DNA from: an uncultured Desulfosarcina sp.
GTDB lineage: Bacteria; Desulfobacterota; Desulfobacteria; Desulfobacterales; Desulfosarcinaceae
Length of the DNA: 64,000 bases
Direction of reading: 5' to 3'
Assembly (NCBI GenBank): GCA_963674945.2
Contig: CAXXWQ010000002.1
Coordinates: 630,308-694,307, forward strand
Part shown: positions 1,053 through 57,765 of the stretch, one piece after another
Position numbering within the stretch: the first letter of the stretch is position 1
Layout of the letters: every line of letters starts with the position of its first letter
Made by a program: the position numbers and the translations under genes
The notes under the pieces: generated by a model
Databases searched by the model: none
Told to the model about the DNA's origin: nothing
Seen by the model: the letters and a program-made list of their open reading frames with translations, nothing else

Positions 1053-1329
1053 GGTGGCAGAATCAGAAGGTCGAACAATTAAATACAAATTCCAATATCC
1101 AAATAACAAAACAGCAGAATTCAGGAGTCAGAAGTCAGAATCCAGAAGGTGGATTAGTTGTATTCAAACCGGGTGCTTTGCACCCGGAATCACCCCGAAC
1201 GATGAAAGCACTAACGTGCTTTTGGATATCCGGCCCATGGCCGAATATCCAAGTCACCCGCTTTGCGGGTGATCGTTGACGCTCCTTTGGCTCAATCATA
1301 AATAAAGAGCTGGAAATCCAGAATGTAGA

Positions 1330-1737: not shown

Positions 1738-2022
1738 CTCCTGGCTCCTGGCTCCTGGCTCCTGGCTCCTGGCTCCTGGCTCCTGGCTCCTGGCTCCTGG
1801 CTCCTGGCTCCTGGCTCCTGGCTCCTGGCTCCTGGCTCCTGGCTCCTGGCTCCTGGCTCCTGGCTCCTGGCTCCTGGCTCCTGGCTCCTGGCTCCTGGCT
1901 CCTGGCTCCTGGCTCCTGGCTCCTGGCTCCTGGCTCCTGGCTCCTGGCTCCTGGCTCCTGGCTCCTGGCTCCTGGCTCCTGGCTCCTGGCTCCTGGCTCC
2001 TGGCTCCTGGCTCCTGGCTCCT
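1738..2022. repeat. Perfect tandem heptamer (CTCCTGG) x40 plus 5 nt
   Basis: Read directly: 285 bp with no interruptions. Confidence 0.98.
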
Positions 2023-2077: not shown

Positions 2078-3241
2078 ATGCAAAAAAACAGCAAGATCTA
2101 CGTCGCCGGCCACAGGGGGCTCGTGGGATCGGCACTCATGCGAACGCTTCAAGCGCAGGGATATGGTAATATCGTCACCCGCACCCATGCCGAACTGGAT
2201 TTATGCGATCAAGCCGCCGTTCGAGATTTTTTCCAACAGGAGCAACCGGAATATGTCTTCCTTGCCGCGGCCAAGGTCGGCGGCATCTGGGCGAACAACA
2301 CCTTTCCGGCGGAATTCCTCTATCAGAATATCAGCATCCAGAGCAATGTCATCCATTTTGCGAAACAAACCGGAGTTCGTCGTCTCCTGTTTCTCGGCTC
2401 CTCCTGCATTTACCCCCGCGATTGTCCCCAGCCGATGAAGGAGTCGTACCTGTTGACCGGACCGCTGGAATCAACCAATCGGCCCTATGCGGTGGCGAAG
2501 ATCGCCGGTATCGAGATGTGCTGGTCGTACAATCGGCAATATGGAACGAAATACCTGGCCGTGATGCCGACAAACCTTTACGGTCCCAACGATAGCTATG
2601 ATCTGACAAATTCCCATGTGCTGCCCGCATTGATACGAAAGATTCACCTGGCGAAGCTGGCGAAAAATGGGGATCTGGAGGGGATTCGACAAGACAGGGA
2701 CCGAAGAGGGGATATACCCGTAGACGTGTTGCAAACCATCGGCGTTTCCGAAGATCTCTCGGCTTCCATCTCCGATGATGTGAAACTCGTCGTGTGGGGC
2801 ACCGGATCTCCAAAGAGAGAGTTTTTGTACAGCGACGATATGGCCAGGGCGAGCCTGTTTCTGATGTCCCTTCCCGACAAGGAATTTGACAATCTGGTAA
2901 GGGCCGAAGCGCTTCCGCTGATCAACATCGGGTGTGGCTATGATCTGACGATCAGAAAACTGGCTGAAACGATCCAGGACGTGCTCGGTTTTTCCGGGGA
3001 AATCATCTGGGACAAGAACAAGCCGGATGGTACGCCCCAAAAGCTATTGGATGTCGGCAACCTCTTTTCCCTGGGATGGAAACCAACCGTAAATCTCGAA
3101 GCGGGCATCGCGGCGGCGTATGAGGATTACCTGAACGAAAGAATTCAGGAGCCGGAAGTCGGAATCCGGAAATCGCGGGTTTTATCGCCACAGACACACA
3201 CAGACGCACACAGACGAAATAGAGCCGATTCCAATTTTTAG
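2078..3241 (+). CDS. fcl: GDP-L-fucose synthase
   Basis: GHRGLVGSA, LAAAKVGGI, FLGSSCIYP, YAVAK, PTNLYGPND, WGTGSPKREF, KPDGTPQK. The last ~34 aa are encoded by repeat DNA. Confidence 0.96.
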   Translation: MQKNSKIYVAGHRGLVGSALMRTLQAQGYGNIVTRTHAELDLCDQAAVRDFFQQEQPEYVFLAAAKVGGIWANNTFPAEFLYQNISIQSNVIHFAKQTGVRRLLFLGSSCIYPRDCPQPMKESYLLTGPLESTNRPYAVAKIAGIEMCWSYNRQYGTKYLAVMPTNLYGPNDSYDLTNSHVLPALIRKIHLAKLAKNGDLEGIRQDRDRRGDIPVDVLQTIGVSEDLSASISDDVKLVVWGTGSPKREFLYSDDMARASLFLMSLPDKEFDNLVRAEALPLINIGCGYDLTIRKLAETIQDVLGFSGEIIWDKNKPDGTPQKLLDVGNLFSLGWKPTVNLEAGIAAAYEDYLNERIQEPEVGIRKSRVLSPQTHTDAHRRNRADSNF

Positions 3242-3297
3242 CTCATTACACATCACTCATTACTGATCACTGATTTTTCCTCCGCGTCTCAGCGTGC
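3185..3297 (+). repeat. 113-bp direct repeat, copy 1 (family B, GCCACAGACACACACAGACGCACACAGAC...)
   Basis: Identical by eye to 4068-4180. Confidence 0.93.
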
Positions 3298-3422
3298 TCG
3301 AGCAAAGCGGGCGAGAAAAAGATCAGCGAAGCGACAACTTCGCCATTCTGACTCCTGGCTTCTGCAGTTGCAGTTCTCTGTGGTGAATAACGAATTACCT
3401 GAAAAGGCAGGAACAATTAAAC

Positions 3423-3450
3423 TTGATAGTACTAAAAAATGTACTATAAT
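3423..3450 (+). promoter_or_regulatory. Sigma70-type promoter with overlapping palindromic operator for the TA pair
   Basis: TTGATA-16bp-TATAAT. Inverted repeat ATAGTAC...GTACTAT (3426-3447) overlaps the spacer, as expected for antitoxin autorepression. Confidence 0.7.
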
Positions 3451-3482
3451 ACGTACAAAATAAACATGCATGCGGGTGCAAT

Positions 3483-3764
3483 ATGCAAAGAATAAAAATT
3501 GATCAGGATATTAAGCCCTTGTCGGAAGTTAGGACCGGAATTGCAAACTTCATAAAACAAGTTCATGATACAAAACGCCCATTGGTCATTACACAGCATG
3601 GAAAAGGCGTGGCCGTGCTAATCGATGTTCATGAATATGAAGCGATCCAAAATCGGCTTGAGCTTTTGACAGATATCCAGTTAGGGCTGAACCAGATTGA
3701 AAACGGACAAGGAATCGATCAAGAAAATGCAAAGCAGATGGTTATCCAGCGAGCCTTACAATGA
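3483..3764 (+). CDS. Type II antitoxin, Phd/YefM family
   Basis: 93 aa with motif RPLVITQHGKGVAVLI; overlaps the downstream toxin (ATGA). Confidence 0.9.
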   Translation: MQRIKIDQDIKPLSEVRTGIANFIKQVHDTKRPLVITQHGKGVAVLIDVHEYEAIQNRLELLTDIQLGLNQIENGQGIDQENAKQMVIQRALQ

Positions 3765-4057
3765 AAATTGTATGGTCTCCTCTTGCGATAGAGCGGACTT
3801 CAGAAATCGCGGGTTTTATTGCCAGAGACAAACCATCCGCTGCAGAAGAATGGATCGATACCGTTTTTCTGAAGGTCGAACAGCTATTGGACTCACCTGA
3901 GATCGGTAGGATTGTGCCCGAAATAAACAACAAGCAGTTTCGAGAGATAATTTATGGTAACTATCGAATTATTTATCGTGTCGAAATAAAGCGGATTTCA
4001 ATTCTTACGATCCAACATGGGAACCAGATATTACCAATAAAGGAAATCTTGACATAA
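3761..4057 (+). CDS. Type II toxin, RelE/ParE family
   Basis: MKIVWSPLA..IARDKPSAA..PEIGRIVPE..REIIYGNYRIIYRV. Confidence 0.9.
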   Translation: MKIVWSPLAIERTSEIAGFIARDKPSAAEEWIDTVFLKVEQLLDSPEIGRIVPEINNKQFREIIYGNYRIIYRVEIKRISILTIQHGNQILPIKEILT

Positions 4058-4067
4058 CAACATCTTT

Positions 4068-4180
4068 TCGCCACAGACACACACAGACGCACACAGACGA
4101 AATAGAGCCGATTCCAATTTTTAGCTCATTACACATCACTCATTACTGATCACTGATTTTTCCTCCGCGTCTCAGCGTGC
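4068..4180 (+). repeat. 113-bp direct repeat, copy 2 (family B)
   Basis: Identical by eye to 3185-3297. Confidence 0.93.
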
Positions 4181-4242
4181 AAAATTATATCATAATTGTA
4201 ATTATGCATTGCATTGTTACAAATTCATTGTATGATAGCACC

Positions 4243-5424
4243 ATGAAAACCAAATTCGTACCACGATTGCTTCGGATCCCCAATTATTCTTTTTTTCTTT
4301 TTGGTCCACGCGGTGTAGGGAAAACAACGGTTTTACGTAAGGTTTTGCCTGATGCCATTTTTTTTGATTTGCTTGAATCTTCATTGTATCTTGAATTATC
4401 ACAAAATCCCGAAAACATAGAGGCCCTTATCGGAGATGCCGATAAGGGCGACTGGATCGTCATTGATGAAATTCAAAAAGTTCCTACCCTTTTGGATGAG
4501 GTTCACCGTTTAATTGAAAATAGAGACTGGAATTTTGCCCTATGCGGGTCATCAGCCAGAAAACTTCGGCAAGGTGGTGTGAATCTTTTGGCAGGTCGTG
4601 CCGTTACTCGAAACCTTGACGCATTTTCATTCAAGGAATTGGGCGACGACTTTGACTTAGATTTTTCTTTGGAATGGGGTCTCCTTCCAATAGTCCAGAC
4701 CCATCGAAGGAATCCTTCTGATTTTTTAAGCGCTTACGTAGATACCTATCTTAAGGAGGAAATCAAAGAAGAGGGGATTGTTCGCCGTTTACCGCCCTTT
4801 TTACGATTTTTAAATATTGCCGGACAACTTAATGGTCAAATAGTAAATGCACAAAATATTGCCAGAGAGGCAAGCATACCCAGGAGTACGGTTGATGTTT
4901 ATTTTTCCATTTTAGAAGATACGCTGCTGGGACACTTTCTGCCGGCCTATCGACCGGGTTTAAAAGTGCGAGAGCAGGCGCATCCAAAATTTTTTTGGTT
5001 CGATTCCGGGGTTTCTAGAGCGGCCTCAGGCCTTCTATTTGATCCGGTAGACCGCATTTGGAAAGGATCAAGCCTGGAGACACTGATTCTGCACGAACTG
5101 AAAGTATACAACCATACGCAAGAAAAACATCGGGACATTTATTATTACAGAACAGGCAGTGGTGTTGAAATTGATTTTATAATTGAAACGCAAAAACGTC
5201 AGCAAACAAACCACCCACATGTGGTATGCATGGAAGTCAAACTGGCGGAAAAATGGGATCGACGGTGGGAGAAACCGATGCGTTCATTCAATGAAAATAA
5301 AAAAATTCACGTAGAACGGATGATTGGTGTTTATACGGGGTCCAGAAGTTATCATTTTGATGGCATAGATGTCCTGCCGGTTGATGCTTTCCTGAAGCAA
5401 CTGCATTCAGGTAAAGTGTTTTAG
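4243..5424 (+). CDS. AAA+ ATPase (AAA_14) with C-terminal DUF4143
   Basis: Walker A GPRGVGKT, Walker B IVIDEIQK, CGSSARKL, LAGRA, PKFFWFDSG, EIDFII..EVK. The ATG at 4243 is preferred to the GTG inside the repeat. Confidence 0.88.
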   Translation: MKTKFVPRLLRIPNYSFFLFGPRGVGKTTVLRKVLPDAIFFDLLESSLYLELSQNPENIEALIGDADKGDWIVIDEIQKVPTLLDEVHRLIENRDWNFALCGSSARKLRQGGVNLLAGRAVTRNLDAFSFKELGDDFDLDFSLEWGLLPIVQTHRRNPSDFLSAYVDTYLKEEIKEEGIVRRLPPFLRFLNIAGQLNGQIVNAQNIAREASIPRSTVDVYFSILEDTLLGHFLPAYRPGLKVREQAHPKFFWFDSGVSRAASGLLFDPVDRIWKGSSLETLILHELKVYNHTQEKHRDIYYYRTGSGVEIDFIIETQKRQQTNHPHVVCMEVKLAEKWDRRWEKPMRSFNENKKIHVERMIGVYTGSRSYHFDGIDVLPVDAFLKQLHSGKVF

Positions 5425-5435
5425 TTTGGTTCCTT

Positions 5436-5473
5436 ATTCGACGTTCAATGTTGGGCGTTCGATGTTCGACGTT
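5436..5473. repeat. Family D heptamer arm (GTTCGAT/GTTCGAC-type), inverted relative to 9332-9369 and 40783-40820
   Basis: ATTCGACGTTCAATGTTGGGCGTTCGATGTTCGACGTT; its reverse complement nearly matches AACGTCGAACATCGAACGTCCAACATCGAAT. Confidence 0.8.
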
Positions 5474-5698
5474 CATTCTTTGTTGGCTCCCTGTTCCCTG
5501 CTCCGAGATTTTTCCTATTTAGTGGTTGAAATCACACCCCCATCCAAGATATAGTGCCTGCATTCTAATGTAATCTGAGTGTTTCCCATGTTGCATTCGT
5601 TTAAATGTGTTGCAAAAATAATGAGTTATTTAAATACTATCCGTCCAATTCCATATTCCCGGAAATCACTTTTCTTAAGGCATAGATCCTTGTTTGCA

Positions 5699-5799
5699 TT
5701 TTGACTATTGGGATTTGGAATTTATTTGTAATTTGGTGCTTGTGATTTGGAATTTTATTTATCGATTTGTTCCTAATTCGATGTTGAATGTTCGACGTT
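5699..5799. repeat. Family C arm (TTTGGAA/TTTGGTG-type) followed by a short family D arm
   Basis: GGGATTTGGAATTTATTTGTAATTTGGTGCTTGTGATTTGGAATTT resembles 9933-9985 and 42402-42458. Confidence 0.7.
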
Positions 5800-5858
5800 T
5801 ATTGGTAATTGGCGCCTGTTTTCTGACATCTTATAACTATTTTTTGAGATCTAAATTC

Positions 5859-8840
5859 ATGACTGAAAAACAACCCATCGATTGTCTGTTGATTACGGGA
5901 ATGCACCGAAGCGGTATGTCGGTGTTGTTGGAATGCCTCGATCTTCTCGGCGTGAGTATCGGGAAAAGCAAATCAGGCAAATATTCCGGCAATGGCGCAC
6001 AGACGACTGCCACGAATGAGATCACAACCACACACGACGTCCTGCTCAGAGATCTGGGGTGCAAGTGGGACATGGTCGGGGCCTTGCCCGGAGATTGGAT
6101 GGAGACCCGGGCGGCCAAGAACGCCAGGGAACGTGTCCGAAACATTATCAAGAACAATTTTTCCAAAAATGGACTCTGGGCCGTTGCCGATCCGCGATTG
6201 AGCCGGCTCATGCCCCTATGGCAGTCCGTGCTGCAAGAGATGAATTTGACCCCGGGATTCTTGTTGACCATACGCCACCCCTGGGAAGTCGCGCAATCAT
6301 TGAAGAAGAACTGCCGGATGGATATCGGGCATGGCCATCTGCTTTGGCTGGCGCTAAACAAGGAAGCCTTTGATCTGTGCCAATCAAGCCCGTACACGGT
6401 CACCACATATGACCAGCTGCTTGCAGATCCTTCGGCCATCTTAAACGATATCGCATCCCAGTTCGGTCTGTCCTTTCCGAATCCTCTGCAGAAACAGATC
6501 TATCAGATATTGGATGTTGTCAGGCCGGAACACAAGCATCACCATCTGAGCGGATTTGACCGATCCGGTGACGATTGGGCATCATTTTCTCCTTTTTCAT
6601 GGCTTTATGAACAGATTTCAAGCCATCGATCCGCCTTGAAGCTGCTTGTCCATGAAACCCCTGAGGATGTCGATGCAGATGCCATCACACGTGAAGCCAT
6701 GCCGGCCCGTTTGTACCCGACGCCTCTTCCGATTGTCAGCCAGAACGCCGCAGTTCAAAAAGAGTCCAATCAGCAGGGCAACCGTTTATTCTACCATTTC
6801 CTGCACCTGATCGGACAATATGAGCGTGAGCAACGGGACCTGGAGCTGAAAAAGATGCACCGGATCTTGCGCAGCACACGTGTTGAAGAGACCCTCTTTG
6901 CCAGACTCTGCATCCCATCCGAAGATGAGAACGCAAATGGTTTGAAGACAAGCGCCGAATCCCTTCTGCTAAAAAATGAATGGCAAAAGGTTCGTTTTTC
7001 CATTCCGAAACCAGAGCTGTTGCAAGCATCCAATCTCGAATTTGCTCCCATTAACACAAGGGGCGTCGTTTCCATATCAAAGATGACTCTGATCAATGTT
7101 GCCACGGATGCGGAATACTGGAACGCATCCACCGAGGAAGGCTTCCAGTCAATCAAATTGAAGGACGCCATTCGGCTGCCCGGAAATGGTGCCTTCCAGG
7201 TAATGACCACAGGTGATAACGCAATACTCTCTTTGCCGGAGTTGCCTGATCTGCCGGATTGTCCGATTGCCTTTCAGGCATGGATAAAGGTGGACACCAG
7301 CCAGAACATCGTCAACACCGCATGGCAAACCCTCCTGAATGAAAAGGATCAATTGGCAGCCAAGTTGGAAGGAGCCATGGCTGACCAACAGGCGATTGCA
7401 GCGAGGTTGAAAGAAAAAGAGCGTGAACTGGTGGCGGTATCGGAAAATAACGAAGCGAGCCGGTCTGCCTTGAAAAAGGAACGCGATACCCATAAAGCCA
7501 AATCTGATCAACTTTCCAATGAACTGGAGAAAGTTCGACATGACCTCGATGCGCGAAATGCGGAAAACATTAAAATTCAACAAACTCTGGAAGAGCAAAG
7601 AAAAAAGGTACAATCTTTACAAGACGCATTATCCGAAAAAAACGGGACCAACGAGGCTTTATCCAAAAAGGTTGTAGAAATGGAGGAAGCTAAAAAAGCC
7701 TACACGCAAGCCCTTCGGGAGCGGGAATCGGAGAACGATAGTTACTGGCAGGCGCAAAGACGCCATGTAAAAGAAGTCGCCCTTCTTGAGAAGAAGGTCG
7801 GAGAGTTGGAGCGTGCTCTCGGTGCAGCCAAGGAAAATGTGGGTACTCGATTCAAGGAGCTTTCCATCATTACCCATTTATTGAAGGAACGAGAAGATGA
7901 TGTAAACCAAAAAGAGGTCCAGTTGACTTCGCTGAAGAGGCAATTGGACCAGTCTTCCGACGAATTGGCGGCAAAAAACAGGCAACTCAACCAGTCTTCC
8001 GACGAATTGGCGGCAAAAGACAGGCAACTCGATTCATCCAGGGATCAGATCAAACATTTACAGCAGAATTTGGCCGGAATGTCCGCTTCGCTGAAAACCG
8101 CCAATGAGGAAAAGAAACTGCTGCACCGTAAACTTGTGCAACGGGACAAATCCATTCAAGCAAAAGATATCGTGATCGATCTGCAGCGCAAACAGATGGA
8201 AAAGATCAAGGACTCGGCAACGTGGAAGGTAATGGCACCAGTCCGCGGATTGTCACGTCCCTTTAAAAAGTCCTCTCGAAGAATGGAACCAATCGATGAG
8301 CAGATCGAGCAGATCCGGCAGTCGGACCTGTTCGATGCGAATTGGTATTTGGAGCAATATCCCGATGTGGCGGAGCATGGTTTGGATCCGGCGGAACACT
8401 ATTTTCACTTCGGTGTATCCGAAGGAAGAGATCCCGGACCGGATTTTGATACGATCTGGTACATGAAGACATATCCGGATGTATCGGAAACGGGATTTAA
8501 TCCTCTGGTGCATTACGTGAAATATGGAAAGGAAGAGGGGCGGCGTCCCAATGCGGGCAAACCCTTTGATGAACAAATAGGATTGGTAAAACAGTCTGAA
8601 TTGTTCGATGCTTCCTGGTATCTGGAGCGATACCCAGATGTGGCAAGTCATAAATTGGATCCGGTGGAACACTATTTTTATTTTGGCGCTTCCGAAGGCA
8701 GGAATCCCGGACCGAATTTTAACACAGCCTGGTATGTGAAAACCTATCCGGACGTATCGGAGGCGGGGATGAATCCGTTGGTGCACTACTTGACATTTGG
8801 GGAAAAGGAAGGGCGGAAGATTCAGCCGAACCAAAAATAA
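5859..8840 (+). CDS. Sulfotransferase-like N-terminal domain, long coiled coil and four C-terminal FD..WY...YPDV repeats; glycan-locus protein
   Basis: ITGMHRSG and DPRLSRLMPLW..IRHPWEVAQSL (P-loop sulfotransferase-like). Heptad-rich middle with a 42-bp tandem duplication at 7948-8030. The ORF-track start at 5694 lies at the family C repeat arm. Confidence 0.75.
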   Translation: MTEKQPIDCLLITGMHRSGMSVLLECLDLLGVSIGKSKSGKYSGNGAQTTATNEITTTHDVLLRDLGCKWDMVGALPGDWMETRAAKNARERVRNIIKNNFSKNGLWAVADPRLSRLMPLWQSVLQEMNLTPGFLLTIRHPWEVAQSLKKNCRMDIGHGHLLWLALNKEAFDLCQSSPYTVTTYDQLLADPSAILNDIASQFGLSFPNPLQKQIYQILDVVRPEHKHHHLSGFDRSGDDWASFSPFSWLYEQISSHRSALKLLVHETPEDVDADAITREAMPARLYPTPLPIVSQNAAVQKESNQQGNRLFYHFLHLIGQYEREQRDLELKKMHRILRSTRVEETLFARLCIPSEDENANGLKTSAESLLLKNEWQKVRFSIPKPELLQASNLEFAPINTRGVVSISKMTLINVATDAEYWNASTEEGFQSIKLKDAIRLPGNGAFQVMTTGDNAILSLPELPDLPDCPIAFQAWIKVDTSQNIVNTAWQTLLNEKDQLAAKLEGAMADQQAIAARLKEKERELVAVSENNEASRSALKKERDTHKAKSDQLSNELEKVRHDLDARNAENIKIQQTLEEQRKKVQSLQDALSEKNGTNEALSKKVVEMEEAKKAYTQALRERESENDSYWQAQRRHVKEVALLEKKVGELERALGAAKENVGTRFKELSIITHLLKEREDDVNQKEVQLTSLKRQLDQSSDELAAKNRQLNQSSDELAAKDRQLDSSRDQIKHLQQNLAGMSASLKTANEEKKLLHRKLVQRDKSIQAKDIVIDLQRKQMEKIKDSATWKVMAPVRGLSRPFKKSSRRMEPIDEQIEQIRQSDLFDANWYLEQYPDVAEHGLDPAEHYFHFGVSEGRDPGPDFDTIWYMKTYPDVSETGFNPLVHYVKYGKEEGRRPNAGKPFDEQIGLVKQSELFDASWYLERYPDVASHKLDPVEHYFYFGASEGRNPGPNFNTAWYVKTYPDVSEAGMNPLVHYLTFGEKEGRKIQPNQK

Positions 8841-8864
8841 ATGACACAGAGAGCATAGAGAAAG

Positions 8865-9323
8865 ATGACTTCCAAATACGAAAATGAAATAAAAAAAATC
8901 GAAGAATCCGGCCTGTTTGACCCCGTTTGGTATCAAGCCGAATACCCCGATACACAATTTCTCAACATGACCCCCATCGAACACTATTTATGGCTGGGTG
9001 CAACATTGGGGCGCAATCCCTCTCCGAAATTCGATGTCGCCTTTTATTTAAAATCCTATCCGGAGGCAGCCAATTCCGGCATTAATCCATTGCTCTATTT
9101 CATTGAAAAGGGAAGGGCAGCAGGACACGAAACGGTTTCACCTGATGAAAAAGAAGAGAAAGAGTCGACTTATAAATCAGTTGATCTCCTTATTGAGGAA
9201 GAAGAATTAAGGGAAGAAAATGAATTATTATTGCTCCAACTTCATCAGGTCCAGGAGGAACTGGAAACCTATTATCTGAAGTATCAGGAGCTGAAGAATC
9301 GTGTGGAAGAGAAGGAAGGGTGA
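8865..9323 (+). CDS. Hypothetical protein with FD..WY..YPD repeats and a C-terminal coiled coil
   Basis: GLFDPVWYQAEYPD..GRNPSPKFD..YP; ENELLLLQLHQVQEELETYY. Confidence 0.7.
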   Translation: MTSKYENEIKKIEESGLFDPVWYQAEYPDTQFLNMTPIEHYLWLGATLGRNPSPKFDVAFYLKSYPEAANSGINPLLYFIEKGRAAGHETVSPDEKEEKESTYKSVDLLIEEEELREENELLLLQLHQVQEELETYYLKYQELKNRVEEKEG

Positions 9324-9331
9324 AGAAAGAG

Positions 9332-9369
9332 AACGTCGAACATCGAACGTCCAACATCGAATATCGGAT
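9332..9369. repeat. Family D heptamer arm (AACATCG)
   Basis: AACGTCGAACATCGAACGTCCAACATCGAATATCGGAT. Confidence 0.8.
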
Positions 9370-9394
9370 GATGTGGGTGCAAGCATACTGGGAG

Positions 9395-9932
9395 AGAATC
9401 CAGGAGTCAGGAGTCAGAATTCAGAATGTGGATTCACCTTCGGCTCAATCATAAAAATGAGTTGGGGATCCATACGTTAGAGTGAAACGACCACCGGCAA
9501 AAAATTTTCAAGACTTGATTGTGTGGCAAAAAGCGCATCAATTTGTTTTGGCTGTGTATCGCTATAGTGAATCGTTCCCTAAGAATGAGATTTATGGGTT
9601 GACCTCACAATTGAGAAGATCCGCTGTTTCAATCCCAGCGGACATTACAGAAGGCTTCAAGAAAAAGACGAAGCCTGACAAGGCAAGGTTTTTAAACATA
9701 GCACAAGGTTCGCTTGAAGAGACACGATACTATCTCATTTTAGCAGCAGATCTCGGCTATGGTAAAAATGTTGAATTGACAAACCAACTCCAGGAGGTCA
9801 GCAAATTGTTGGAAGGTTATCTTTCTTCCATTTTGCAAACAGAAAATAGGTAATGCTAATATTTATATTAGTAGATGGAGCGAAGCGACAACCTATCCAT
9901 TCTGAATTCTGACTCCTGGATTCTGAATTCTG
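9395..9932. mobile_element. Heptamer-armed palindromic element (family A), filled copy 2, carrying a four-helix-bundle gene
   Basis: AGAATCCAGGAGTCAGGAGTCAGAATTCAGAATG, core TTCACCTTCGGCTCAATC, gene, core GATGGAGCGAAGCGACAAC, arm CATTCTGAATTCTGACTCCTGGATTCTGAATTCTG. Confidence 0.8.
9482..9853 (+). CDS. Four helix bundle protein (TIGR02436 family)
   Basis: FQDLIVWQKA..FPKNEIYGLTSQLRRSAVSIP..IAQGSLEE. The usual NIAEG motif reads DITEG here. Confidence 0.9.
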   Translation: MKRPPAKNFQDLIVWQKAHQFVLAVYRYSESFPKNEIYGLTSQLRRSAVSIPADITEGFKKKTKPDKARFLNIAQGSLEETRYYLILAADLGYGKNVELTNQLQEVSKLLEGYLSSILQTENR

Positions 9933-10047
9933 TTGTTTTGTAATTTGAGATTTGTTTGTAATTTGGTGCTTTTGTTTTGGAATTTAATCGGGAGCAAAGC
10001 GACAACCGCTCCATTCTGAATTCTGACTCCTGACTACTGAATTCTGA
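9933..10047. repeat. Composite right-hand arm: family C arm, core GGAGCAAAGCGAC, then family A arm
   Basis: Same order and near-identical sequence as 42402-42518. Confidence 0.8.
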
Positions 10048-10123
10048 AATGCTTTCGCTTTTTGTTCTCTCTGGTGAAAACAAAGATAACCTTTTATGAT
10101 TTAGCCAAATATGGGAAACCTCG

Positions 10124-12808
10124 ATGCCCAATCCAACACTGGTAGAAGACGATAACGGTCTGATCCTTTTGGGTGCTCCCCGAAGCGGCCTCTCCCTGCT
10201 GTCAGGTTGTTTTCACCTGCTGGGAATGGATACTGGAGGAGCCGATCCGGAAGTGGTGAGGGAGATACATCATGAATTTTGTCGTGAACTCGGCGTGGAC
10301 CTGTTGGCTTCAGATCAATTACCAATGGGGTGGCAAGATTCTGCTGCCGCTACAAATGCTCGCGGTAAAATTGTAGAGCTGCTTCGTTCCCTCGAAACAT
10401 CTGAACAACCATGGATGATCGCCGATCCCTTCTTTTGCATGGTATTTCCATTATGGCGGGATTGCTTCGATGAATTGGAAATCGAACCAAGGTTTGTTCA
10501 TTTGATACGTCATCCCTGGGAAACAGCCCAATCCATATCCTGTGATGAAAATATCGATTTGAAAACCAGCCACACGATTTGGATGGCATACAATCAGGAA
10601 CCATTGGCTATTCGGGCAGATTACCCTTACGTTTTGGTAACGCTCGATCAACTCCTTGCCGATCCCTTATCGGTTCTCACCAAAGTCAAATCGGCGTTAT
10701 TCATAGAGTATCCAAATGATTTACGTACCGTGTATCCTGCAATACTGAATTCGGTTCGTCCTGGTGGCAAGCGTTTCAATGCAGGGGTTGCGACGAGAGA
10801 GGATCGTGATGATTTCGGTCAATTTTTTCATGCTTATCAAGAATTCTGTGCGCTCCAGGTAGATGTCACGAAGGTGGTTGAATCGAATCCAGCAAAGAAA
10901 GGGATTAAAGCGAAGCTTCAAAAACTAACCCAAGATTTTGAAGAAAAAACAAAACTTCTCTCCGCGCTACAAGACAAGTTAGACCAAATTGAAAAATCTC
11001 GAGACGAAAAGGTGAAGCTTGTCAGTGACCGGCAGGCGGAAATCGACCAGCTAAAACAAACCTTGGCAGAAAGGATCAAGGAGTCGGAAGCGCATCAAAG
11101 CCAGCTCGGTCAAATGACCAAGTCCCGGGATGAGCATGCGAAGCTGGCGGCCGACCGGCAAGTTCAGCTACAGGACCTTGCAAAGTCCCGGGATGAACAG
11201 GTGAAGCTGGCAAATGGACGGCAGGCGGAAATCGACCAGCTAAAACAAACCTTGGCAGAAAAGATCAAGGAGTCGGAAGCGCATCAAAGCCAGCTCGGTC
11301 AAATGACCAAGTCCCGGGATGAGCATGCGAAGCTGGCGGCCGACCGGCAAGTTCAGCTACAGGACCTTGCAAAGTCCCGGGATGAACAGGTGAAGCTGGC
11401 AAATGGACGGCAGGCGGAAATCGACCAGCTAAAACAAACCTTGGCGGAAAAGATCAAGGAGTCGGAAGCGCATCAAAGCCAGCTCGGTCAAATGACCAAG
11501 TCCCGGGATGAGCATGCGAAGCTGGCGGCCGACCGGCAAGTTCAGCTACAGGACCTTGCAAAGTCCCGGGATGAACAGGTGAAGCTGGCAAATGGACGGC
11601 AGGCGGAAATCGACCAGCTAAAACAAACCTTGGCAGAAAAGATCAAGGAGTCGGAAGCGCATCAAAGCCAGCTCGGTCAAATGACCAAGTCCCGGGATGA
11701 GCATGCGAAGCTGGCGGCCGACCGGCAAGTTCAGCTACAGGACCTTGCAAAGTCCCGGGATGAACAGGTGAAGCTGGCAAATGGACGGCAGGCGGAAATC
11801 GACCAGCTAAAACAAACCTTGGCGGAAAAGATCAAGGAGTCGGAAGCGCATCAAAGCCAGCTCGGTCAAATGACCAAGTCCCGGGATGAGCATGCGAAGC
11901 TGGCGGCCGACCGGCAAGTTCAGCTACAGGACCTTGCAAAGTCCCGGGATGAACAGGTGAAGCTGGCAAATGGACGGCAGGCGGAAATCGACCAGCTAAA
12001 ACAAACCTTGGCAGAAAAGATCAAGGAGTCGGAAGCGCATCAAAGCCAGCTCGGTCAAATGACCAAGTCCCGGGATGAGCATGCGAAGCTGGCGGCCGAC
12101 CGGCAAGTTCAGCTACAGGACCTTGCAAAGTCCCGGGATGAACAGGTGAAGCTGGCAAATGGACGGCAGGCGGAAATCGACCAGCTAAAACAAACCTTGG
12201 CAGAAAAGATCAAGGAGTCGGAAGCGCATCAAAGCCAGCTCGGTCAAATGACCAAGTCCCGGGATGAGCATGCGAAGCTGGCGGCCGACCGGCAAGCGCA
12301 ATTACAGAATTTGATGAAGGACCGAGACGAAAGGAGCAAGCAACTTGCTGATCGCCAAGCTCAATTGGAACAGCTCACTAAAGAAAGAGAAGCGCAAACA
12401 AAACTCGCAAATGATCGGAAAACACAGTTTGATCAGTTAAAGCAAGAATTGGAAAATAAGACAAAGGCGTCTGACGCTCTTCAGAGCCAAATCGTAAAGC
12501 TTGTTAAAACCCGTGACGAACAAGAAAAGTTGGCAGCCAATCGTGAGGAGCGAATTGAAAGCCTGACAAAGGACCAAGACGAAAAGGCCAATCAAATTGC
12601 TAATTACCAAACTCAATTGGAACAACTTACCAAAGAAAGAGACGCACAGGCGAAACTTGCCAAACAAAGTAAATCAAGAATAAAAGAGCTTGAAGAAAAA
12701 ATTTTGGAAGCTGAAGGACGAAAACATCTATTCTCTGAGGAAATTGCCAGGGCAGAGGGTCAAATCGAATTCATTAAAGAGATTATTTTTTTGGAGTCTG
12801 AAAGATGA
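10124..12808 (+). CDS. Sulfotransferase-like N-terminal domain with a very long repetitive coiled coil
   Basis: LLGAPRSG, DPFF..PLW, IRHPWETAQS (paralogous to the 5859 protein), followed by 63-aa tandem repeats. Confidence 0.75.
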   Translation: MPNPTLVEDDNGLILLGAPRSGLSLLSGCFHLLGMDTGGADPEVVREIHHEFCRELGVDLLASDQLPMGWQDSAAATNARGKIVELLRSLETSEQPWMIADPFFCMVFPLWRDCFDELEIEPRFVHLIRHPWETAQSISCDENIDLKTSHTIWMAYNQEPLAIRADYPYVLVTLDQLLADPLSVLTKVKSALFIEYPNDLRTVYPAILNSVRPGGKRFNAGVATREDRDDFGQFFHAYQEFCALQVDVTKVVESNPAKKGIKAKLQKLTQDFEEKTKLLSALQDKLDQIEKSRDEKVKLVSDRQAEIDQLKQTLAERIKESEAHQSQLGQMTKSRDEHAKLAADRQVQLQDLAKSRDEQVKLANGRQAEIDQLKQTLAEKIKESEAHQSQLGQMTKSRDEHAKLAADRQVQLQDLAKSRDEQVKLANGRQAEIDQLKQTLAEKIKESEAHQSQLGQMTKSRDEHAKLAADRQVQLQDLAKSRDEQVKLANGRQAEIDQLKQTLAEKIKESEAHQSQLGQMTKSRDEHAKLAADRQVQLQDLAKSRDEQVKLANGRQAEIDQLKQTLAEKIKESEAHQSQLGQMTKSRDEHAKLAADRQVQLQDLAKSRDEQVKLANGRQAEIDQLKQTLAEKIKESEAHQSQLGQMTKSRDEHAKLAADRQVQLQDLAKSRDEQVKLANGRQAEIDQLKQTLAEKIKESEAHQSQLGQMTKSRDEHAKLAADRQAQLQNLMKDRDERSKQLADRQAQLEQLTKEREAQTKLANDRKTQFDQLKQELENKTKASDALQSQIVKLVKTRDEQEKLAANREERIESLTKDQDEKANQIANYQTQLEQLTKERDAQAKLAKQSKSRIKELEEKILEAEGRKHLFSEEIARAEGQIEFIKEIIFLESER
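11030..12296 (+). repeat. Coding tandem repeat, 189 bp x ~6.7
   Basis: Unit starts CGGCAGGCGGAAATCGAC at 11030, 11219, 11408, 11597, 11786, 11975 and 12164; copies are almost identical. Confidence 0.95.
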
Positions 12809-42183: not shown

Positions 42184-42224
42184 TTTTTTATATTCAAACA
42201 GACTAACCCGGAAAAGTTAAATTT

Positions 42225-42348
42225 GACGGATTCGTAAAAAGCCCGATATCGGCGTTACGCTTCATCCTTCGTCACTGCGGAGTATCGTAAATACACCTCA
42301 TTCCTCAGGATTCGCAAGCCTTGATCTCGGGCTTTTTACGAATCCGTC
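42225..42348. mobile_element. MITE-like element (~124 bp), copy 1
   Basis: Perfect 22-bp TIR GACGGATTCGTAAAAAGCCCGA; an extra degenerate right end extends to ~42380; homologous to 58665-58789. Confidence 0.82.
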
Positions 42349-42401
42349 CGAACAGCGACTTTTTACGAGAACATCAAATTTAACCCGAAGGTTGATAAAA
42401 C

Positions 42402-44083: not shown

Positions 44084-44208
44084 CAGGAGTCAGGAGTCAG
44101 AATTCAGAAGGCAGAATCAGGTACTCGCCTTCGGCTCGATCTATCTTATCCAATCGACGGAGCAAAGCGACAACATCGTCATTCTGAATTCTGACTCCTG
44201 GATTCTGG
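44084..44208. mobile_element. Heptamer-armed palindromic element (family A), empty copy 1
   Basis: CAGGAGTCAGGAGTCAGAATTCAGAA..TCGCCTTCGGCTCGAT-loop-ATCGACGGAGCAAAGCGACAAC..ATTCTGAATTCTGACTCCTGGATTCTGG. Confidence 0.85.
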
Positions 44209-44236: not shown

Positions 44237-45382
44237 TCAACCTTCGATGTTCGATGTTCCAAAATGATTTGTTTTATCAATTCGTTCACCTGTAAAAAGA
44301 CTGGCCACCTGGAAGCATACCAGGCCGAAGGGAAGATATCCCGCGTATCCGGGCAGGGGCATCTCGAACAGGTGAAAGCGCTGCACGTATGGGATTGCAT
44401 AGGACCAACGGGCCATGCTCATGATGTTCCACATTTCCCAGAAGAATCCGCAGATCAGGGCGGCCAGGGCGGGTACCACAAGCGGGCGCACGTCGCCGTA
44501 TCGTAATGGATAGAAAAGGGTGGGCCGGCCGGCCAGCCGTTGGCTGGAAAGGATGATGACAAGCGGCGATACCCAGACAAGCGCAAACAAATGGTCCGGA
44601 AAGATGCCGATCAGTAACAGGCCGGCGGATGCGGCAACAATTCCCAGAAGGGCGATCCACGGCGAGTCGGGAAGCCGAACCGGTGTCAGCCGGGCCAGGC
44701 CTTCGTTGAGGGGGGGAAAGGTTCGCAGCAGATCGATCATGCTCATCACGCCGGGAAGAACGGTGGTAAAGGCCAGGCTGGAAAAATAGGCGTACTCTCC
44801 CGGTCCCATGGACGGGACTCCGGTGTAGTACCAATTCTGAACGAAACGGTTTAAATATTCGAAAAACCACCAGAAGAGGGCACTGGCGGGAAAAAGCAGA
44901 AGAAAGGCGAGGGGGCGGTCCAGCAGCAGGCAACTGCCGGAGCGTCTCACCGTAATGCCATTGATGAATATTATAAATCCTGCCCATATGGGCAAAAAGG
45001 TGTGTGGCTGGAAAGGCTGGAACCAGGTGAAACGCGACCATGCCAGCAGCCAGAAGAAAGTGCAAAGAAGAAGCCCGGCCATACCCCACCAGGGGAAACG
45101 GCCGATCGGGGCTGCCCGTCGGTGCGTCTCTTTGACCCGTCGGTATCCTGTCCCAACGGCCCATACCAGGCCGGCAAGGGGTGCCGTTGCGGCCAACATG
45201 TAAAATATAAACCAGGGCCATGAAAATGGAGCATGGGGAACGAATCGGGTAACCGGCGGCATCTCCAGGAACGGCATCGGGTCACGGCCCGAAGCGACGA
45301 TTCCCAGCAGGGGCAATCCGAAAACCAGGATGGAAATCCCTACCCACATTAGGATATCAATTCTGTGGTAGCATTTTTTCAC
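44237..45382 (-). CDS. Multi-pass membrane protein of unknown function
   Basis: About 10 hydrophobic segments; WWFFEYLN, GFFWEMWN, FEMPLPGYAGYLPF. Confidence 0.75.
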   Translation of the reverse strand: MKKCYHRIDILMWVGISILVFGLPLLGIVASGRDPMPFLEMPPVTRFVPHAPFSWPWFIFYMLAATAPLAGLVWAVGTGYRRVKETHRRAAPIGRFPWWGMAGLLLCTFFWLLAWSRFTWFQPFQPHTFLPIWAGFIIFINGITVRRSGSCLLLDRPLAFLLLFPASALFWWFFEYLNRFVQNWYYTGVPSMGPGEYAYFSSLAFTTVLPGVMSMIDLLRTFPPLNEGLARLTPVRLPDSPWIALLGIVAASAGLLLIGIFPDHLFALVWVSPLVIILSSQRLAGRPTLFYPLRYGDVRPLVVPALAALICGFFWEMWNIMSMARWSYAIPYVQRFHLFEMPLPGYAGYLPFGLVCFQVASLFTGERIDKTNHFGTSNIEG

Positions 45383-45455: not shown

Positions 45456-45585
45456 AGGAATTCAGTAGTTAGAATTCAGAATCCAGAATGAAGTATTCGC
45501 CCTCGGCTCGTTCCATTCTATTCAATCGAAGGAGCGCAGCGACAACATCGCCATTCTGACTTCTGGCTCCTGGATTCTGACTCCT
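45456..45585. mobile_element. Heptamer-armed palindromic element (family A), empty copy 2
   Basis: GAATTCAGTAGTTAGAATTCAGAATCCAGAATG..TTCGCCCTCGGCTCG-loop-ATCGAAGGAGCGCAGCGACAAC..CATTCTGACTTCTGGCTCCTGGATTCTGACTCCT. Confidence 0.85.
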
Positions 45586-45659: not shown

Positions 45660-46028
45660 TTATTGAATCCAGGAAATTACCACCGTACCCAAGACGAGGG
45701 ACAGAATCCCCATGAGCCGAAACCCTTGCTCCGAGAGAGAATCCAGCCAGGTACGGGTAATTTCGAACAGGCCGCCGGGATTGAAGTAGATGAGCACACC
45801 CTTTGCGATACCCAGTACGCCGATGAAGATGATGATGCCGGCATGGGTGGTGGTAGAGCCGGCAAACACAAGTAACAGGCCGAATCCGGACGGGATGATG
45901 GCAAGGTACATGCGATCCAGCTTGTCCATCAGGGCATTGAAATAAGCCTTACAATCATCCGTATACAGGATCATCAACGCTCCGGCCGCCACCCACAGAA
46001 AACCTAAAAGATAGACTATGAACTTCAT
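45660..46028 (-). CDS. Small membrane protein (about 4 TM)
   Basis: Hydrophobic 122-aa ORF with AGGAGG RBS. Confidence 0.7.
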   Translation of the reverse strand: MKFIVYLLGFLWVAAGALMILYTDDCKAYFNALMDKLDRMYLAIIPSGFGLLLVFAGSTTTHAGIIIFIGVLGIAKGVLIYFNPGGLFEITRTWLDSLSEQGFRLMGILSLVLGTVVISWIQ

Positions 46029-51095: not shown

Positions 51096-51236
51096 GGGGA
51101 CTAAATAGTGTTACGTTTTAAGTGGTTAAGTGTTAAGTTAATGTATTCTGTCGATTATAAAAATGACCCCTATCCTTTCCTTAACACTTAAAACTTAATC
51201 ACTTAACACTTGTCACCCAAAACGTTGTTAGTCCCC
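51096..51236. repeat. Palindromic element with (TTAAGTG)/(CACTTAA) arms (family E)
   Basis: GGGGACTAA..ACGTTTTAAGTGGTTAAGTGTTAAG ... CTTAACACTTAAAACTTAATCACTTAACACTT..AAAACGT..TTAGTCCCC. Confidence 0.75.
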
Positions 51237-57643: not shown

Positions 57644-57765
57644 AGAATTCAGGAGTCAGAATCCAGAATCAGGTATTCGCCTTCGGCTCGATCCTTAGTA
57701 TCCAATCGATGAAGCGAAGCGACATCAGATTCATTCTGGCTCCTGAATACTAACTTCTGACTCCT
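57644..57765. mobile_element. Heptamer-armed palindromic element (family A), empty copy 3
   Basis: AGAATTCAGGAGTCAGAATCCAGAATC..TTCGCCTTCGGCTCGAT-loop-ATCGATGAAGCGAAGCGAC..CATTCTGGCTCCTGAATACTAACTTCTGACTCCT. Confidence 0.85.

Follow-up and report, generated by a model that had tools for sequence, protein, structure and literature searches.

The hairpin repeat described here occurs in the genome of an uncultured Desulfosarcina sp. both empty and loaded with a four-helix-bundle (4HB) gene. The loaded and empty forms are one family, with termini in common and deletion intermediates between them. We favor, with modest confidence, the explanation that this hairpin family is a likely selfish, probably mobile cassette akin to the ORF-bearing 23S rRNA intervening sequences (IVSs), the short copies likely being non-autonomous and MITE-like. 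The layout of the family is five purine-rich heptamers, core TCGCCTTCGGCTC, a loop, core GAGCGAAGCGAC and five complementary heptamers, with five heptamers per arm in the consensus. The window, by which is meant the whole 64-kb stretch of DNA that was analyzed, contains the following copies and parts.

9395 to 9429, + strand: left arm of the first loaded copy, heptamers AGAATCC AGGAGTC AGGAGTC AGAATTC AGAATGT, read directly
9434 to 9446, + strand: left core TCACCTTCGGCTC, one mismatch to the family consensus
9447 to 9491, + strand: leader, ending in the right-core-like GAGTGAAACGAC (9480 to 9491), which overlaps the GTG start
9482 to 9853, + strand: 4HB gene, 123 aa, GTG start, intact
9878 to 9889, + strand: right core GAGCGAAGCGAC, from the core search
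9898 to 9932, + strand: right arm of the first loaded copy, heptamers CATTCTG AATTCTG ACTCCTG GATTCTG AATTCTG
9990 to 10048, + strand: extra right half, core GAGCAAAGCGAC and arm, without a left partner (C2:640289-640353 in the profile scan)
1116 to 2022, + strand: second loaded copy (the 1115 copy), 82% identical to the first over 490 nt
1116 to 1150, + strand: left arm of the second loaded copy
1160 to 1285: nested 126-nt repeat between left arm and left core of the second loaded copy
1290 to 1303, + strand: degenerate left core CGCTCCTTTGGCTC of the second loaded copy
1362 to 1694, + strand: 4HB gene of the second loaded copy, open from a TTG at 1362, ATG frame lost
1721 to 1732, + strand: right core of the second loaded copy
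1738 to 2022, + strand: right arm of the second loaded copy, replaced by ~40 CTGGCTC units
3324 to 3374, + strand: right-half remnant, core CAGCGAAGCGAC and arm (C2:633632-633681)
44084 to 44208, + strand: gene-less copy with a 22-nt loop, RNA fold of -52.4 kcal/mol, z -5.4
45456 to 45585, + strand: gene-less copy, missing from the orthologous spacer in four of four relatives examined
57644 to 57765, + strand: gene-less copy between convergent genes, with core pair and fold

All five copies of one architecture that had been described in the initial annotation were found, and its inventory of the window stood apart from two more right-half copies that it had missed, at 3324-3374 and about 9990-10048. 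The cores are shared overall, as claimed, but with one mismatch in the left core of the first loaded copy and with a degenerate left core in the second. The right core was found 7 times in the 64-kb window against 0.19 expected (one mismatch allowed) and the left core 4 times against 0.09 expected, all on the + strand, and neither count was equaled in any of 100 shuffles. The common + orientation regardless of neighboring genes holds in the window, where by crude ORF calls both loaded copies run in the same direction as their + strand neighbors and the copies at 44084 and 45456 lie between − strand genes, but it does not extend to the genome, in which both orientations are present.

The family is larger than had been noted. 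The profile scan of the 7.08-Mb genome gave 102 non-overlapping nhmmer matches to the hairpin repeat, 51 of which are full-length gene-less copies of ~137 nt each, and a search for core pairs with a loop of 10-60 nt gave 57 pairs, 55 of them true short copies. The matches are denser on contig C2 (7.2 per 100 kb) than on the other contigs (0.66-2.1 per 100 kb), and 27 of them are clustered within 94 kb. In about half of the gene-less copies, conservation continues for 30-45 nt more on each side. The real ends are thus beyond the coordinates first given, and for the same reason no target-site duplication is definable. The traits of MITE-type elements are present, as the copies are short, non-coding, dispersed and many, with terminal inverted repeats. 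As a caution for annotation, the ~100 intergenic hairpins in this genome are repeats and not terminators.

Loaded and empty copies

The two arms of the first loaded copy give a best inverted match score of 58, compared with 19 for a displaced control. Its gene (9482-9853) has no obvious Shine-Dalgarno sequence, and since it also starts with GTG, this intact loaded gene may lack expression. In the second loaded copy, the ATG frame was lost via a 1-nt difference in an A-run, and the nested repeat at 1160-1285 has 52 BLASTN matches genome-wide. Both loaded-copy proteins match the PF05635 profile (E 1.8e-36, 125 bits for the first and E 1.7e-34, 118.7 bits for the second; cut-off 33.8 bits) as well as TIGR02436 (E 2.1e-34, 118 bits for the first and 115.9 bits for the second; cut-off 24 bits). 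They are 83% identical across the aligned part, which is consistent with the earlier count of ~18 differences in 110 residues. The protein of 9482-9853 is homologous to the solved structures PDB 2gsc (E 3e-21) and 2rld, each of which has 5 chains, and from its sequence a four-helix-bundle fold and a pentameric ring are predicted for the 123-aa protein.

PF05635 matches occur at 10 genomic places, 9 of them on C2. A 4HB gene or its remains lie inside four core-bearing copies in the genome, and the 4HB genes of this genome are mostly decayed (one is frameshifted, two are remnants and one is split by a 1.65-kb insert). Six of nine 4HB loci in the genome are placed between inverted heptamer arrays with a score of at least 30, compared with none of nine controls. 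The heptamer units vary among the 4HB paralogues of this genome but agree within each locus.

The view that a gene-carrying form is paired here with a miniature one is supported by the common arms and cores, by the alignment of the leader and by two internal deletions. First, the leader of the loaded copy (C2:639702-639802) was aligned by nhmmer to positions 6-96 of the miniature profile, through to the right-core position. The MKRPPAK-type N-terminus is kept in 4HB homologues of other phyla, and thus part of this likeness is coding sequence. Secondly, two core-bearing copies are internal-deletion derivatives of the loaded form. C2:627466-627810 consists of loaded positions 1-177 and 362-538 (92-95% identity), and C2:615829-616106 consists of loaded positions 1-218 and 481-538. 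Given both the loaded copies and these derivatives, the loaded and empty forms therefore belong to one family. The change may have gone in either direction, by loss of the ORF to give the short form or by entry of the ORF into a pre-existing short form.

Nesting was observed in at least six core-bearing copies, whose loops contain palindromes that belong to other heptamer families. A repeat ending in ...CATACGAG is a nested insert of ~75 nt; it was rejected as the end of an IS200/IS605-type IS because the two copies checked adjoin ordinary host genes, without a transposase. Arrays more than 2 kb apart were rejected as brackets around a cargo because the enclosed genes are ordinary (TPR, VanZ, ExbD/TonB, cytochrome c assembly), and we take such inverted arrays to be separate arrays in different spacers, with an AGTGTTA-type copy as a possible exception. 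Four DNA runs over positions 2100-10400 gave only short contigs that break at repeats, and the joints seen in them are other genomic copies of the element. For example, an apparent joint from 9450 to 9874 is another copy, as its bridging letters match the loop at C2:619213.

Heptamer arms around 4HB genes in other genomes

The enrichment of 4HB genes inside such arms that the initial annotation implied was found both in this genome (the 6 of 9 loci above) and elsewhere. An inverted-repeat score of at least 30 was obtained for 55 of 77 4HB loci from many phyla, whereas none of 73 displaced and four of 77 direct-repeat controls reached it. Among the genus relatives, 14 of 28 4HB loci did so. Of 75 flanks on each side, 51 upstream and 36 downstream had 7 as their best lag, with a lag-7 identity of 0.445 upstream and 0.408 downstream against 0.246 in the control. 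The cassettes are co-oriented with the upstream gene at 60 of 68 loci. Seven homologues were compared, taken from relatives and from other phyla. Five of them have the arm directly against the start codon, as CAGGAGTCAGA followed by ATG, and four have the stop codon within the first 3' heptamers.

Gene-less copies with cores occur across the genus, in 15 of 30 other genomes and up to 11 per genome, but cores flank a 4HB gene in this genome only. No genuine core was found beside a 4HB gene at the 28 genus loci, where one chance match falls inside a CGCCTTA-type repeat array, and none was found at 80 loci from other phyla. In genus relatives the cores hardly vary, unlike the loops and arms. The cores are a local addition, and the heptamer arms alone are the general signature of the 4HB gene family. 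Since the cores flank the 4HB gene only here, the loaded copies could be a local chimera and not the master of the short copies.

Position, mobility and folding

Fifty of the 51 full-length copies are intergenic. By spacer, 20 are convergent, 28 tandem and 2 divergent, against a background of spacers longer than 150 nt with 404 convergent, 1393 tandem and 577 divergent. Gene-less copies in tandem spacers tended to be antisense to their neighbors (23 vs 6, p 0.002), and gene-less copies as a whole tended to be aligned with the G-rich strand (34 vs 17, p 0.02). This orientation bias points to DNA-strand or replication asymmetry at least as much as to a role in mRNA. The glycan setting that had been noted is borne out by the sugar-nucleotide enzyme genes beside the second loaded copy (GDP-mannose 4,6-dehydratase and NAD-dependent epimerase). 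Among five scanned ORFs flanking the two loaded copies, three gave matches, either to sugar-nucleotide enzymes or to a weak repressor-like domain, and the other two gave none.

The earlier suggestion of a mobile unit has circumstantial support. It is favored by ~100 dispersed copies, by a copy number that is variable in the genus and by one orthologous spacer that is empty in four of four relatives; against it, neither a target-site duplication nor an enzyme was found, nor any allele pair, filled and empty, within the species. The spacer is that between the orthologues of 44237-45382 and 45660-46028, which contains a different repeat in two of the relatives, another palindrome in one and a short spacer only in one. 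This presence/absence difference is between species and at one site, and it may instead reflect loss in the relatives. No DNA-level synteny was found around the loaded copies in 30 relatives. No movement enzyme is encoded by the element or was found nearby, and there is no element within 10 kb of either of the two genomic places that match the Y1 transposase profile PF01797.

Single-sequence folds were made for 64 gene-less copies (52 from this genome and 12 from relatives). At least 20 arm pairs formed in 48 of the 64, and the left core was paired with the right core in 38. The three gene-less copies of the window gave + strand folds of -42 to -52 kcal/mol (z -3.3 to -5.4), and the hairpins of both strands are about equally stable. 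RNAalifold gave no consensus structure for the 64 aligned copies, probably because register slips misalign the periodic arms, and no Rfam family reached its gathering score anywhere in the 64-kb window. For the other suggestion in the initial annotation, an IVS-like RNA stem that would be bound by the element's own protein, indirect evidence is mixed, comprising the co-orientation of cassettes with upstream genes, a weak G-U asymmetry in the arms and the mostly antisense placement of gene-less copies. Arm mismatches compatible with G-U only slightly outnumbered A-C mismatches by 74 to 51 in 46 loci (p 0.049) and by 36 to 28 in 28 miniatures. Transversion mismatches were commoner than either, with 160 in the 46 loci and 50 in the 28 miniatures.

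Proposed explanation and alternatives

Several known systems resemble the element in part. ORF-bearing 23S rRNA IVSs (Coxiella burnetii, Leptospira and others) likewise hold a PF05635 ORF within terminal inverted repeats that form a long stem, have a sporadic distribution pointing to horizontal transfer and carry an ORF that is often decaying or poorly expressed. Unlike these, the element here lies between protein-coding genes and not in a 23S/16S rRNA helix, and it has tandem 7-nt arms, two extra conserved cores and ~50 full-length gene-less copies. The Coxiella IVS is described as having a 28-bp terminal stem that is cut by RNase III and as encoding an S23p ORF that is apparently unexpressed and decaying; in Xanthomonas, S23p forms a homopentameric ring, the IVS was seen in an older proposal as a mobile element with the ORF serving its mobility, and the role and origin of rRNA IVS inserts are still called unclear (PMC4990558). 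23S_rRNA_IVP ORFs are also described in rRNA inserts of CPR bacteria (bioRxiv 10.1101/2024.02.27.582315). The MITEs are similar in being short, non-coding, multi-copy and intergenic with inverted termini, and in having a longer gene-bearing form linked by internal deletions. Unlike MITE parents, the longer form here encodes a 123-aa helical-bundle protein and not a transposase, and its ends are not sharp. REP/REPIN sequences are dispersed hairpin doublets in intergenic 3' regions, and their RAYT (Y1-transposase) gene is flanked by inverted repeats. They share with the element the intergenic hairpins, the single gene type between inverted repeats and the IS-like or smaller inserts in repeats, but the gene flanked here is not a Y1 transposase and the arms are periodic heptamers.

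The heptamers themselves have a counterpart in the TAACTGA repeats or STRR of Beggiatoaceae, cyanobacteria and Bacteroidetes, which are described as intergenic arrays of 2-6 heptamers that often stop directly ahead of a start codon and whose patchy distribution suggests horizontal transfer (PMC4679880). The passages on these repeats in that source (PMC4679880) concern direct arrays before many kinds of genes and draw no link to 4HB genes or to inverted pairs, whereas the arrays here are paired, inverted and tied to one gene family. In the literature outside subscription journals, no report was found in which PF05635/TIGR02436 genes are connected with heptamer arrays or with miniature derivatives outside rRNA. 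The PF05635 family has been called Avd-like (PMC10053308). The 4HB protein has a distant likeness to DGR Avd (bAvd Pfam E 2.3e-5, NCBIfam DivGenRetAVD E 7.3e-6) but is far below both family cut-offs (DivGenRetAVD 26.3 bits vs 80), and no reverse transcriptase domain is present among the Pfam hits of the five scanned flanking ORFs.

In the selfish-cassette explanation, the cassette would lack its own promoter and depend for transcription on read-through from a host operon. The arms of the transcript are predicted to pair into a ~35-bp stem, which in a canonical cassette would take in the AGGAG just before the start codon as well as the stop codon. By analogy with the rRNA inserts, RNase III may cut this stem and so free the insert from the host message. 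The 4HB protein, which is homologous to a pentameric ring and to Avd, the DGR protein that binds nucleic acid, is predicted to bind the element's own nucleic acid. The element encodes no transposase. Insertion into hairpin tips is a likely targeting rule because the ORF in this genome occupies the apical loop of a core-bearing hairpin, where other nested palindromes are found too.

A less probable but still serious explanation is that the core-bearing 137-nt hairpin is an independent small mobile or REP/REPIN-like repeat of the genus that is moved in trans by another enzyme, with the 4HB ORF as a passenger that landed in or recombined into the loop in one genome. It would account for core-bearing gene-less copies in 15 of 30 genus genomes when cores lie beside a 4HB gene only here. 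Canonical arms abut the ORF, while here a left core and leader on one side and a trailer and right core on the other intervene. In addition, the C-terminus of the protein diverges exactly where canonical ORFs enter the arm, TCCATT is found on either side of the interposed segment, and the loop takes other nested palindromes too. The 3'-end bias with few divergent spacers is also that of REP-type repeats. Arms of the AGGAGTC/AGAATTC type are common to both kinds of element and would readily allow homologous exchange. However, the heptamers of the outer arms in the core-bearing family also flank this 4HB subfamily in Nitrospirota, cyanobacteria and Desulfobacterales, which would not be expected of an unrelated repeat. 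A passenger is also disfavored by four loaded or once-loaded copies that look independent and by two deletion derivatives, as well as by the failure to find a candidate enzyme, the Y1 transposase genes of the genome being unassociated with the element.

The TRAP ring binds its triplet repeats, and by analogy the heptamer arrays could be protein-binding arrays, in which a 4HB pentamer ring would wrap five 7-nt units of its own mRNA or DNA and regulate its own translation, the gene-less copies being decoys or extra operators; we regard this as improbable. Autoregulation is suggested because AGGAG in the last units precedes the start codon. In five of the seven cassettes shown, the array runs right up to that codon. 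A plain stem needs no 7-nt period, and the five heptamers per arm correspond to the 5 chains of 2gsc and 2rld and to the homopentamer described for S23p (PMC4990558). Period-7 arrays genome-wide favor 4 or 5 units (170 cases, against 8 with 6 units), but many are copies of a few families, so this peak does not consist of independent observations; at other periods the unit counts fall off steadily. Some period-7 arrays hold 10-41 units, and binding alone would leave unexplained why the two sides are complementary within each locus.

Lastly, it is very improbable that the hairpins are host-serving elements under selection (3' stabilizers, terminators or recombination sites) with the 4HB gene nearby by accident, for although convergent and tandem spacers are enriched, divergent ones avoided and the predicted hairpins stable, half of the genus and the orthologous spacer of four relatives lack the element, its copy number is strongly variable with 27 matches in 94 kb, no run of T follows the stem in the gene-less copies read at 44084, 45456 and 57644, and across phyla the statistical link to 4HB genes is strong.

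This genome presents the gene-in-hairpin unit in a setting other than rRNA, along with gene-less derivatives of it, intermediates and nested insertions. The life cycle of the element is open here to ordinary experiments, and a concrete origin is offered for many intergenic heptamer arrays. A broader reading, which we put forward as speculative and rather doubtful, is that 4HB genes with mirrored heptamers are a widespread, undescribed class of selfish hairpins that home to hairpin tips (rRNA helices, other palindromes and their own empty copies). The ring protein would confer specificity on a new copying mechanism by reading five 7-base units, and the empty shells would be the source of bacterial heptamer repeats. 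If this were true, this genome would show a class of selfish hairpins in full bloom, with ~100 shells, nested copies and decaying genes.

Copies of the element and its 4HB gene

The element is a hairpin repeat in which arms of five mirrored heptamers enclose a left core, a loop and a right core. All five copies reported for the window by the initial annotation were found as described: two loaded with a four-helix-bundle (4HB) gene (9395-9932 and 1115-2022) and three short, gene-less copies (44084-44208, 45456-45585 and 57644-57765). With one mismatch allowed, the right core (GAGCGAAGCGAC) occurs seven times in the window against 0.19 expected and the left core (TCGCCTTCGGCTC) four times against 0.09 expected. 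These counts were matched in 0 of 100 shuffles for either core, and every occurrence is on the + strand, in agreement with the common orientation first noted.

The genome (7.08 Mb in four contigs, the window included) was searched for core pairs with up to two mismatches per core and loops of 10-60 nt. Two of the 57 pairs were dropped from the short copies, one being a chance match within a coding region and the other the leader of a loaded copy itself. The 55 true short copies mostly have a 22-nt loop. A profile was built from 52 short copies, and its consensus is 137 nt (five heptamers, left core, loop, right core, five heptamers). The profile scan proposed in the initial annotation found this genome to hold 102 non-overlapping matches at E up to 1e-3, near full length in 51. 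Matches are densest on C2, the contig of the window, at 7.2 per 100 kb (0.66-2.1 on each of the remaining contigs), and the last 94 kb of C2 contains 27 matches. In about half of the full-length copies conservation continues for another 30-45 nt per side, which puts the true ends beyond the 137 nt and leaves them without a sharp boundary.

Both window 4HB ORFs match PF05635 and TIGR02436 well over the cut-offs and models of Avd, the DGR accessory protein, weakly and under the cut-off. Among solved structures the nearest is Xanthomonas XCC0516 (2gsc, E 3e-21), an entry with five chains. Family matches lie at 10 places (nine loci), 9 of them on C2.

4HB genes of this genome
Window 9482-9853: intact gene, GTG start
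C3:622005-622403: intact gene
C2, starting at 369146: intact gene
C2, starting at 383744: intact gene
Window 1115 copy: ATG frame lost, open from TTG only
Other decayed places: one frameshifted gene and two remnants
C2:360382-362396 (locus L005, arms CGGAAGA / TCTTCCG): two places, halves of one gene with about 1.65 kb inserted between them

The genes are largely decayed, to an extent that would be expected of a selfish passenger rather than of a host gene under selection.

The proposal that gene-carrying and miniature forms belong to one element was upheld on several grounds. First, core-bearing copies enclose four of the 10 4HB places (nine loci). Secondly, C2:627466-627810 consists of loaded-element positions 1-177 and 362-538 at 92-95% identity, and C2:615829-616106 of positions 1-218 and 481-538; judged by sequence, both are plain internal deletions of the loaded element. 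Third, in nhmmer the left arm, left core and leader of the loaded copy align to the short-copy profile up to the right-core position, because the right-core-like GAGTGAAACGAC overlaps the GTG start.

The loops also contain other palindromes and repeats, so elements nest in each other's tips. For example, inner palindromes of other heptamer families (CACAGAG-type, AAATCAC-type) lie in the loop of at least six copies, and two loaded copies carry in their leader a four-hairpin 126-nt repeat with 52 BLASTN matches genome-wide (window 1160-1285, C2:620484-620609).

A variant of the right-arm heptamer, CTGGCTC, forms long tandem runs behind two loaded copies. An insert with two hairpins, about 75 nt long and of two subtypes that each have a ...ATACGAG end, occupies one fixed arm point between ...TTCAG and AAT...; 14 of its 20 copies are within the core-bearing element and 4 more adjoin arm-like heptamers. 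No transposase ORF was found beside it at the two copies checked.

Expansions and inserts
Window 1738-2022: CTGGCTC expansion, about 40 copies
C2:621040-621280: CTGGCTC expansion, about 30 copies
C2:562100-562174, C2:182530-182599 and C1:8885-8960: examples of the insert of about 75 nt

Heptamer arms and cores

Each 4HB locus of this genome that was inspected by eye lies between inverted arrays of 7-nt units, which match within one locus and are unlike between paralogues.

Arm unit pairs of 4HB loci in this genome
AGGAGTC / GACTCCT
GGTTCAA / TTGAACC
AGCTGAT / ATCAGCT
CGGAAGA / TCTTCCG
CTGTAGG / CCTACAG

The anticipated enrichment of 4HB genes within inverted arms was seen in this genome, with an inverted-repeat score of at least 30 in 6 of nine loci versus 0 of nine displaced controls. 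The analysis was extended to 80 public loci encoding the closest homologues (50-76% identity) from Nitrospirota, cyanobacteria, Acidobacteriota, Bacteroidota, Planctomycetota, Verrucomicrobiota and others, 77 of which were scored and three not, owing to a short flank. A score of at least 30 was reached by 55 of the 77, by 0/73 displaced controls and by 4/77 direct-repeat controls. It was also reached by 91 of 385 mismatched-locus pairs, and similar heptamer units therefore recur between phyla. Lag-7 identity at these loci is 0.445 upstream and 0.408 downstream (controls 0.246), lag 7 is the best period in 51/75 upstream and 36/75 downstream flanks, and purine content is 66% upstream and 42% downstream. 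In a genome-wide count, period-7 arrays of this genome have 4-5 units in 170 cases versus 6 units in 8. Among the seven homologues displayed (relatives and other phyla), the arm abuts the start codon in five as CAGGAGTCAGA followed by ATG, thus placing AGGAG at Shine-Dalgarno distance, and in four the ORF extends into the 3' arm, with its stop codon within a heptamer. The cassette has the orientation of the upstream gene at 60 of 68 loci and of the downstream gene at 49 of 68.

The two cores are outside this general signature. Both together were found in 0 of the 80 homologue loci, and a genuine core in 0 of 28 4HB loci of the genus, only 14 of which have an inverted-repeat score of at least 30; the single core flagged among the 28 falls by chance in an array of CGCCTTA-type repeats. 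Core-bearing gene-less copies are present in 15 of 30 other genus genomes, with at most 11 matches per genome, and in them the cores are almost invariant while arms and loops vary. In the loaded copies here, the arms are separated from the ORF by left core with leader on one side and by trailer with right core on the other, the 4HB C-terminus diverges from homologues exactly where these enter the arm, and TCCATT flanks the interposed 3' segment on both sides. Two histories fit: short copies may descend by deletion from a loaded master, or an older short form may have acquired the ORF in its loop, possibly by exchange via shared arms.

Two other armed palindrome families were observed. One has AGTGTTA / TAACACT arms and a gap of about 45 nt; in two relatives (loci L147 and L148) a distant 4HB gene stands between the same arms. 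At locus L157 such a palindrome is split by 2.6 kb encoding a Y-family DNA polymerase (IMS) and two small ORFs that match nothing in Pfam, possibly an alternative cargo; the inverted match continues past the heptamers (GAATTCTATCGATTGTAG). The other has GAACATC / GATGTTC units and a gap of 48-112 nt, and these units are also common across the genus and order.

Other armed palindromes
Window ~51107-51211, C2:294515-294622, C3:652736-652838 and C3:1924544-1924650: AGTGTTA / TAACACT
C3:218368-221043: locus L157, split AGTGTTA-type
C3:1254309-1254494, C4:511304-511479 and window ~9330-9365: GAACATC / GATGTTC, examples from a genome-wide family

Position, folding and signs of movement

Gene positions were taken from a crude ORF-based gene call. 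Of 51 full-length copies 50 are intergenic, lying in 20 convergent, 28 tandem and 2 divergent spacers against a background of 404, 1393 and 577, and the near absence from divergent spacers indicates that promoter regions are avoided. In tandem spacers, copies are antisense to the genes in 23 cases versus sense in 6 (p 0.002), and copies follow the orientation of the locally G-rich strand in 34 cases versus 17 (p 0.02); the 102 matches taken as a whole lean the same way. Loaded cassettes of other phyla, unlike the empty copies here, are sense to the upstream gene. We read that sense orientation as selection for ORF expression by read-through, and the antisense lean of empty copies leaves room for a DNA-strand-specific step.

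RNA folds of the three gene-less window copies reach -42 to -52 kcal/mol (z -3.3 to -5.4 for the + strand), and the - strand folds about equally well. Sixty-four gene-less copies (52 from this genome, 12 from relatives) were folded singly: 48 have at least 20 arm pairs, 38 pair the left with the right core and 51 form a short stem within the loop. RNAalifold gave no consensus structure from the full alignment. Core variation falls mostly at the middle three positions of each core and is non-compensatory; thus the cores look constrained in sequence, beyond the constraint of pairing alone. In a strand test for a transcribed stem, G-U-compatible mismatches outnumber A-C-type marginally across 46 loci (74 versus 51, p 0.049) and by 36 versus 28 in 28 short copies, and transversion mismatches in the arms outnumber both.

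Copy number across the genus ranges from none detected to about 100. The comparison of orthologous sites proposed in the initial annotation showed one between-species difference. Copy 45456-45585 lies between window genes 44237-45382 and 45660-46028, and four of four relatives that keep the same gene neighbours lack the element in this spacer; two have a different repeat of about 155 nt there, one has another palindrome and one a short spacer only. This absence may instead reflect loss in the relatives. DNA contigs of public runs break at repeats. No element lies near the genome's two Y1-transposase genes.

The repeat of about 155 nt (window 42219-42382), the occupant of that spacer in two relatives, has dozens of matches at 80-95% identity in each of five relatives searched.

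Proposed mechanism and known systems

The likeliest reading, in our view slightly more probable than not, is that the unit is a selfish cassette of the type of 23S rRNA intervening sequences (IVSs). It would be transported within host transcripts and, as predicted, form a long stem there, and RNase III would cut it out, by analogy with the Coxiella and Leptospira inserts, for which PMC4990558 describes a 28-bp terminal stem cleaved by RNase III and a once-proposed role of the insert ORF in mobility. Nucleic acid of the element is the predicted ligand of the 4HB protein, which is homologous to a pentameric ring and distantly to Avd. An arm length of five heptamers, the sharp drop in unit number above five and the pentameric homologue make a ring-on-array model, with the pentamer on a five-heptamer arm, a speculation worth testing. 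Nesting in loops suggests that hairpin tips are the target of insertion, which would also match the rRNA helix-tip site of classical IVSs.

Several known systems resemble the element. Its protein is a PF05635/TIGR02436 member, and the element was likened to ORF-bearing rRNA IVSs but differs in lying outside rRNA genes. As a family it is similar to MITEs, but without a transposase-encoding parent or visible target duplication. The layout resembles that of REPIN-RAYT, with a different, non-catalytic-looking gene. Unexplained heptamer arrays before start codons are described in Beggiatoaceae, cyanobacteria and Bacteroidetes (PMC4679880), where the passages on these arrays draw no link to the 4HB gene family. 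A literature search found no description of heptamer-armed 4HB cassettes or their miniatures outside rRNA. New to the picture from this genome are the core-bearing lineage and its growth to about 100 copies, deletion intermediates between the loaded and short forms, and the nesting of elements together with their orientation statistics.
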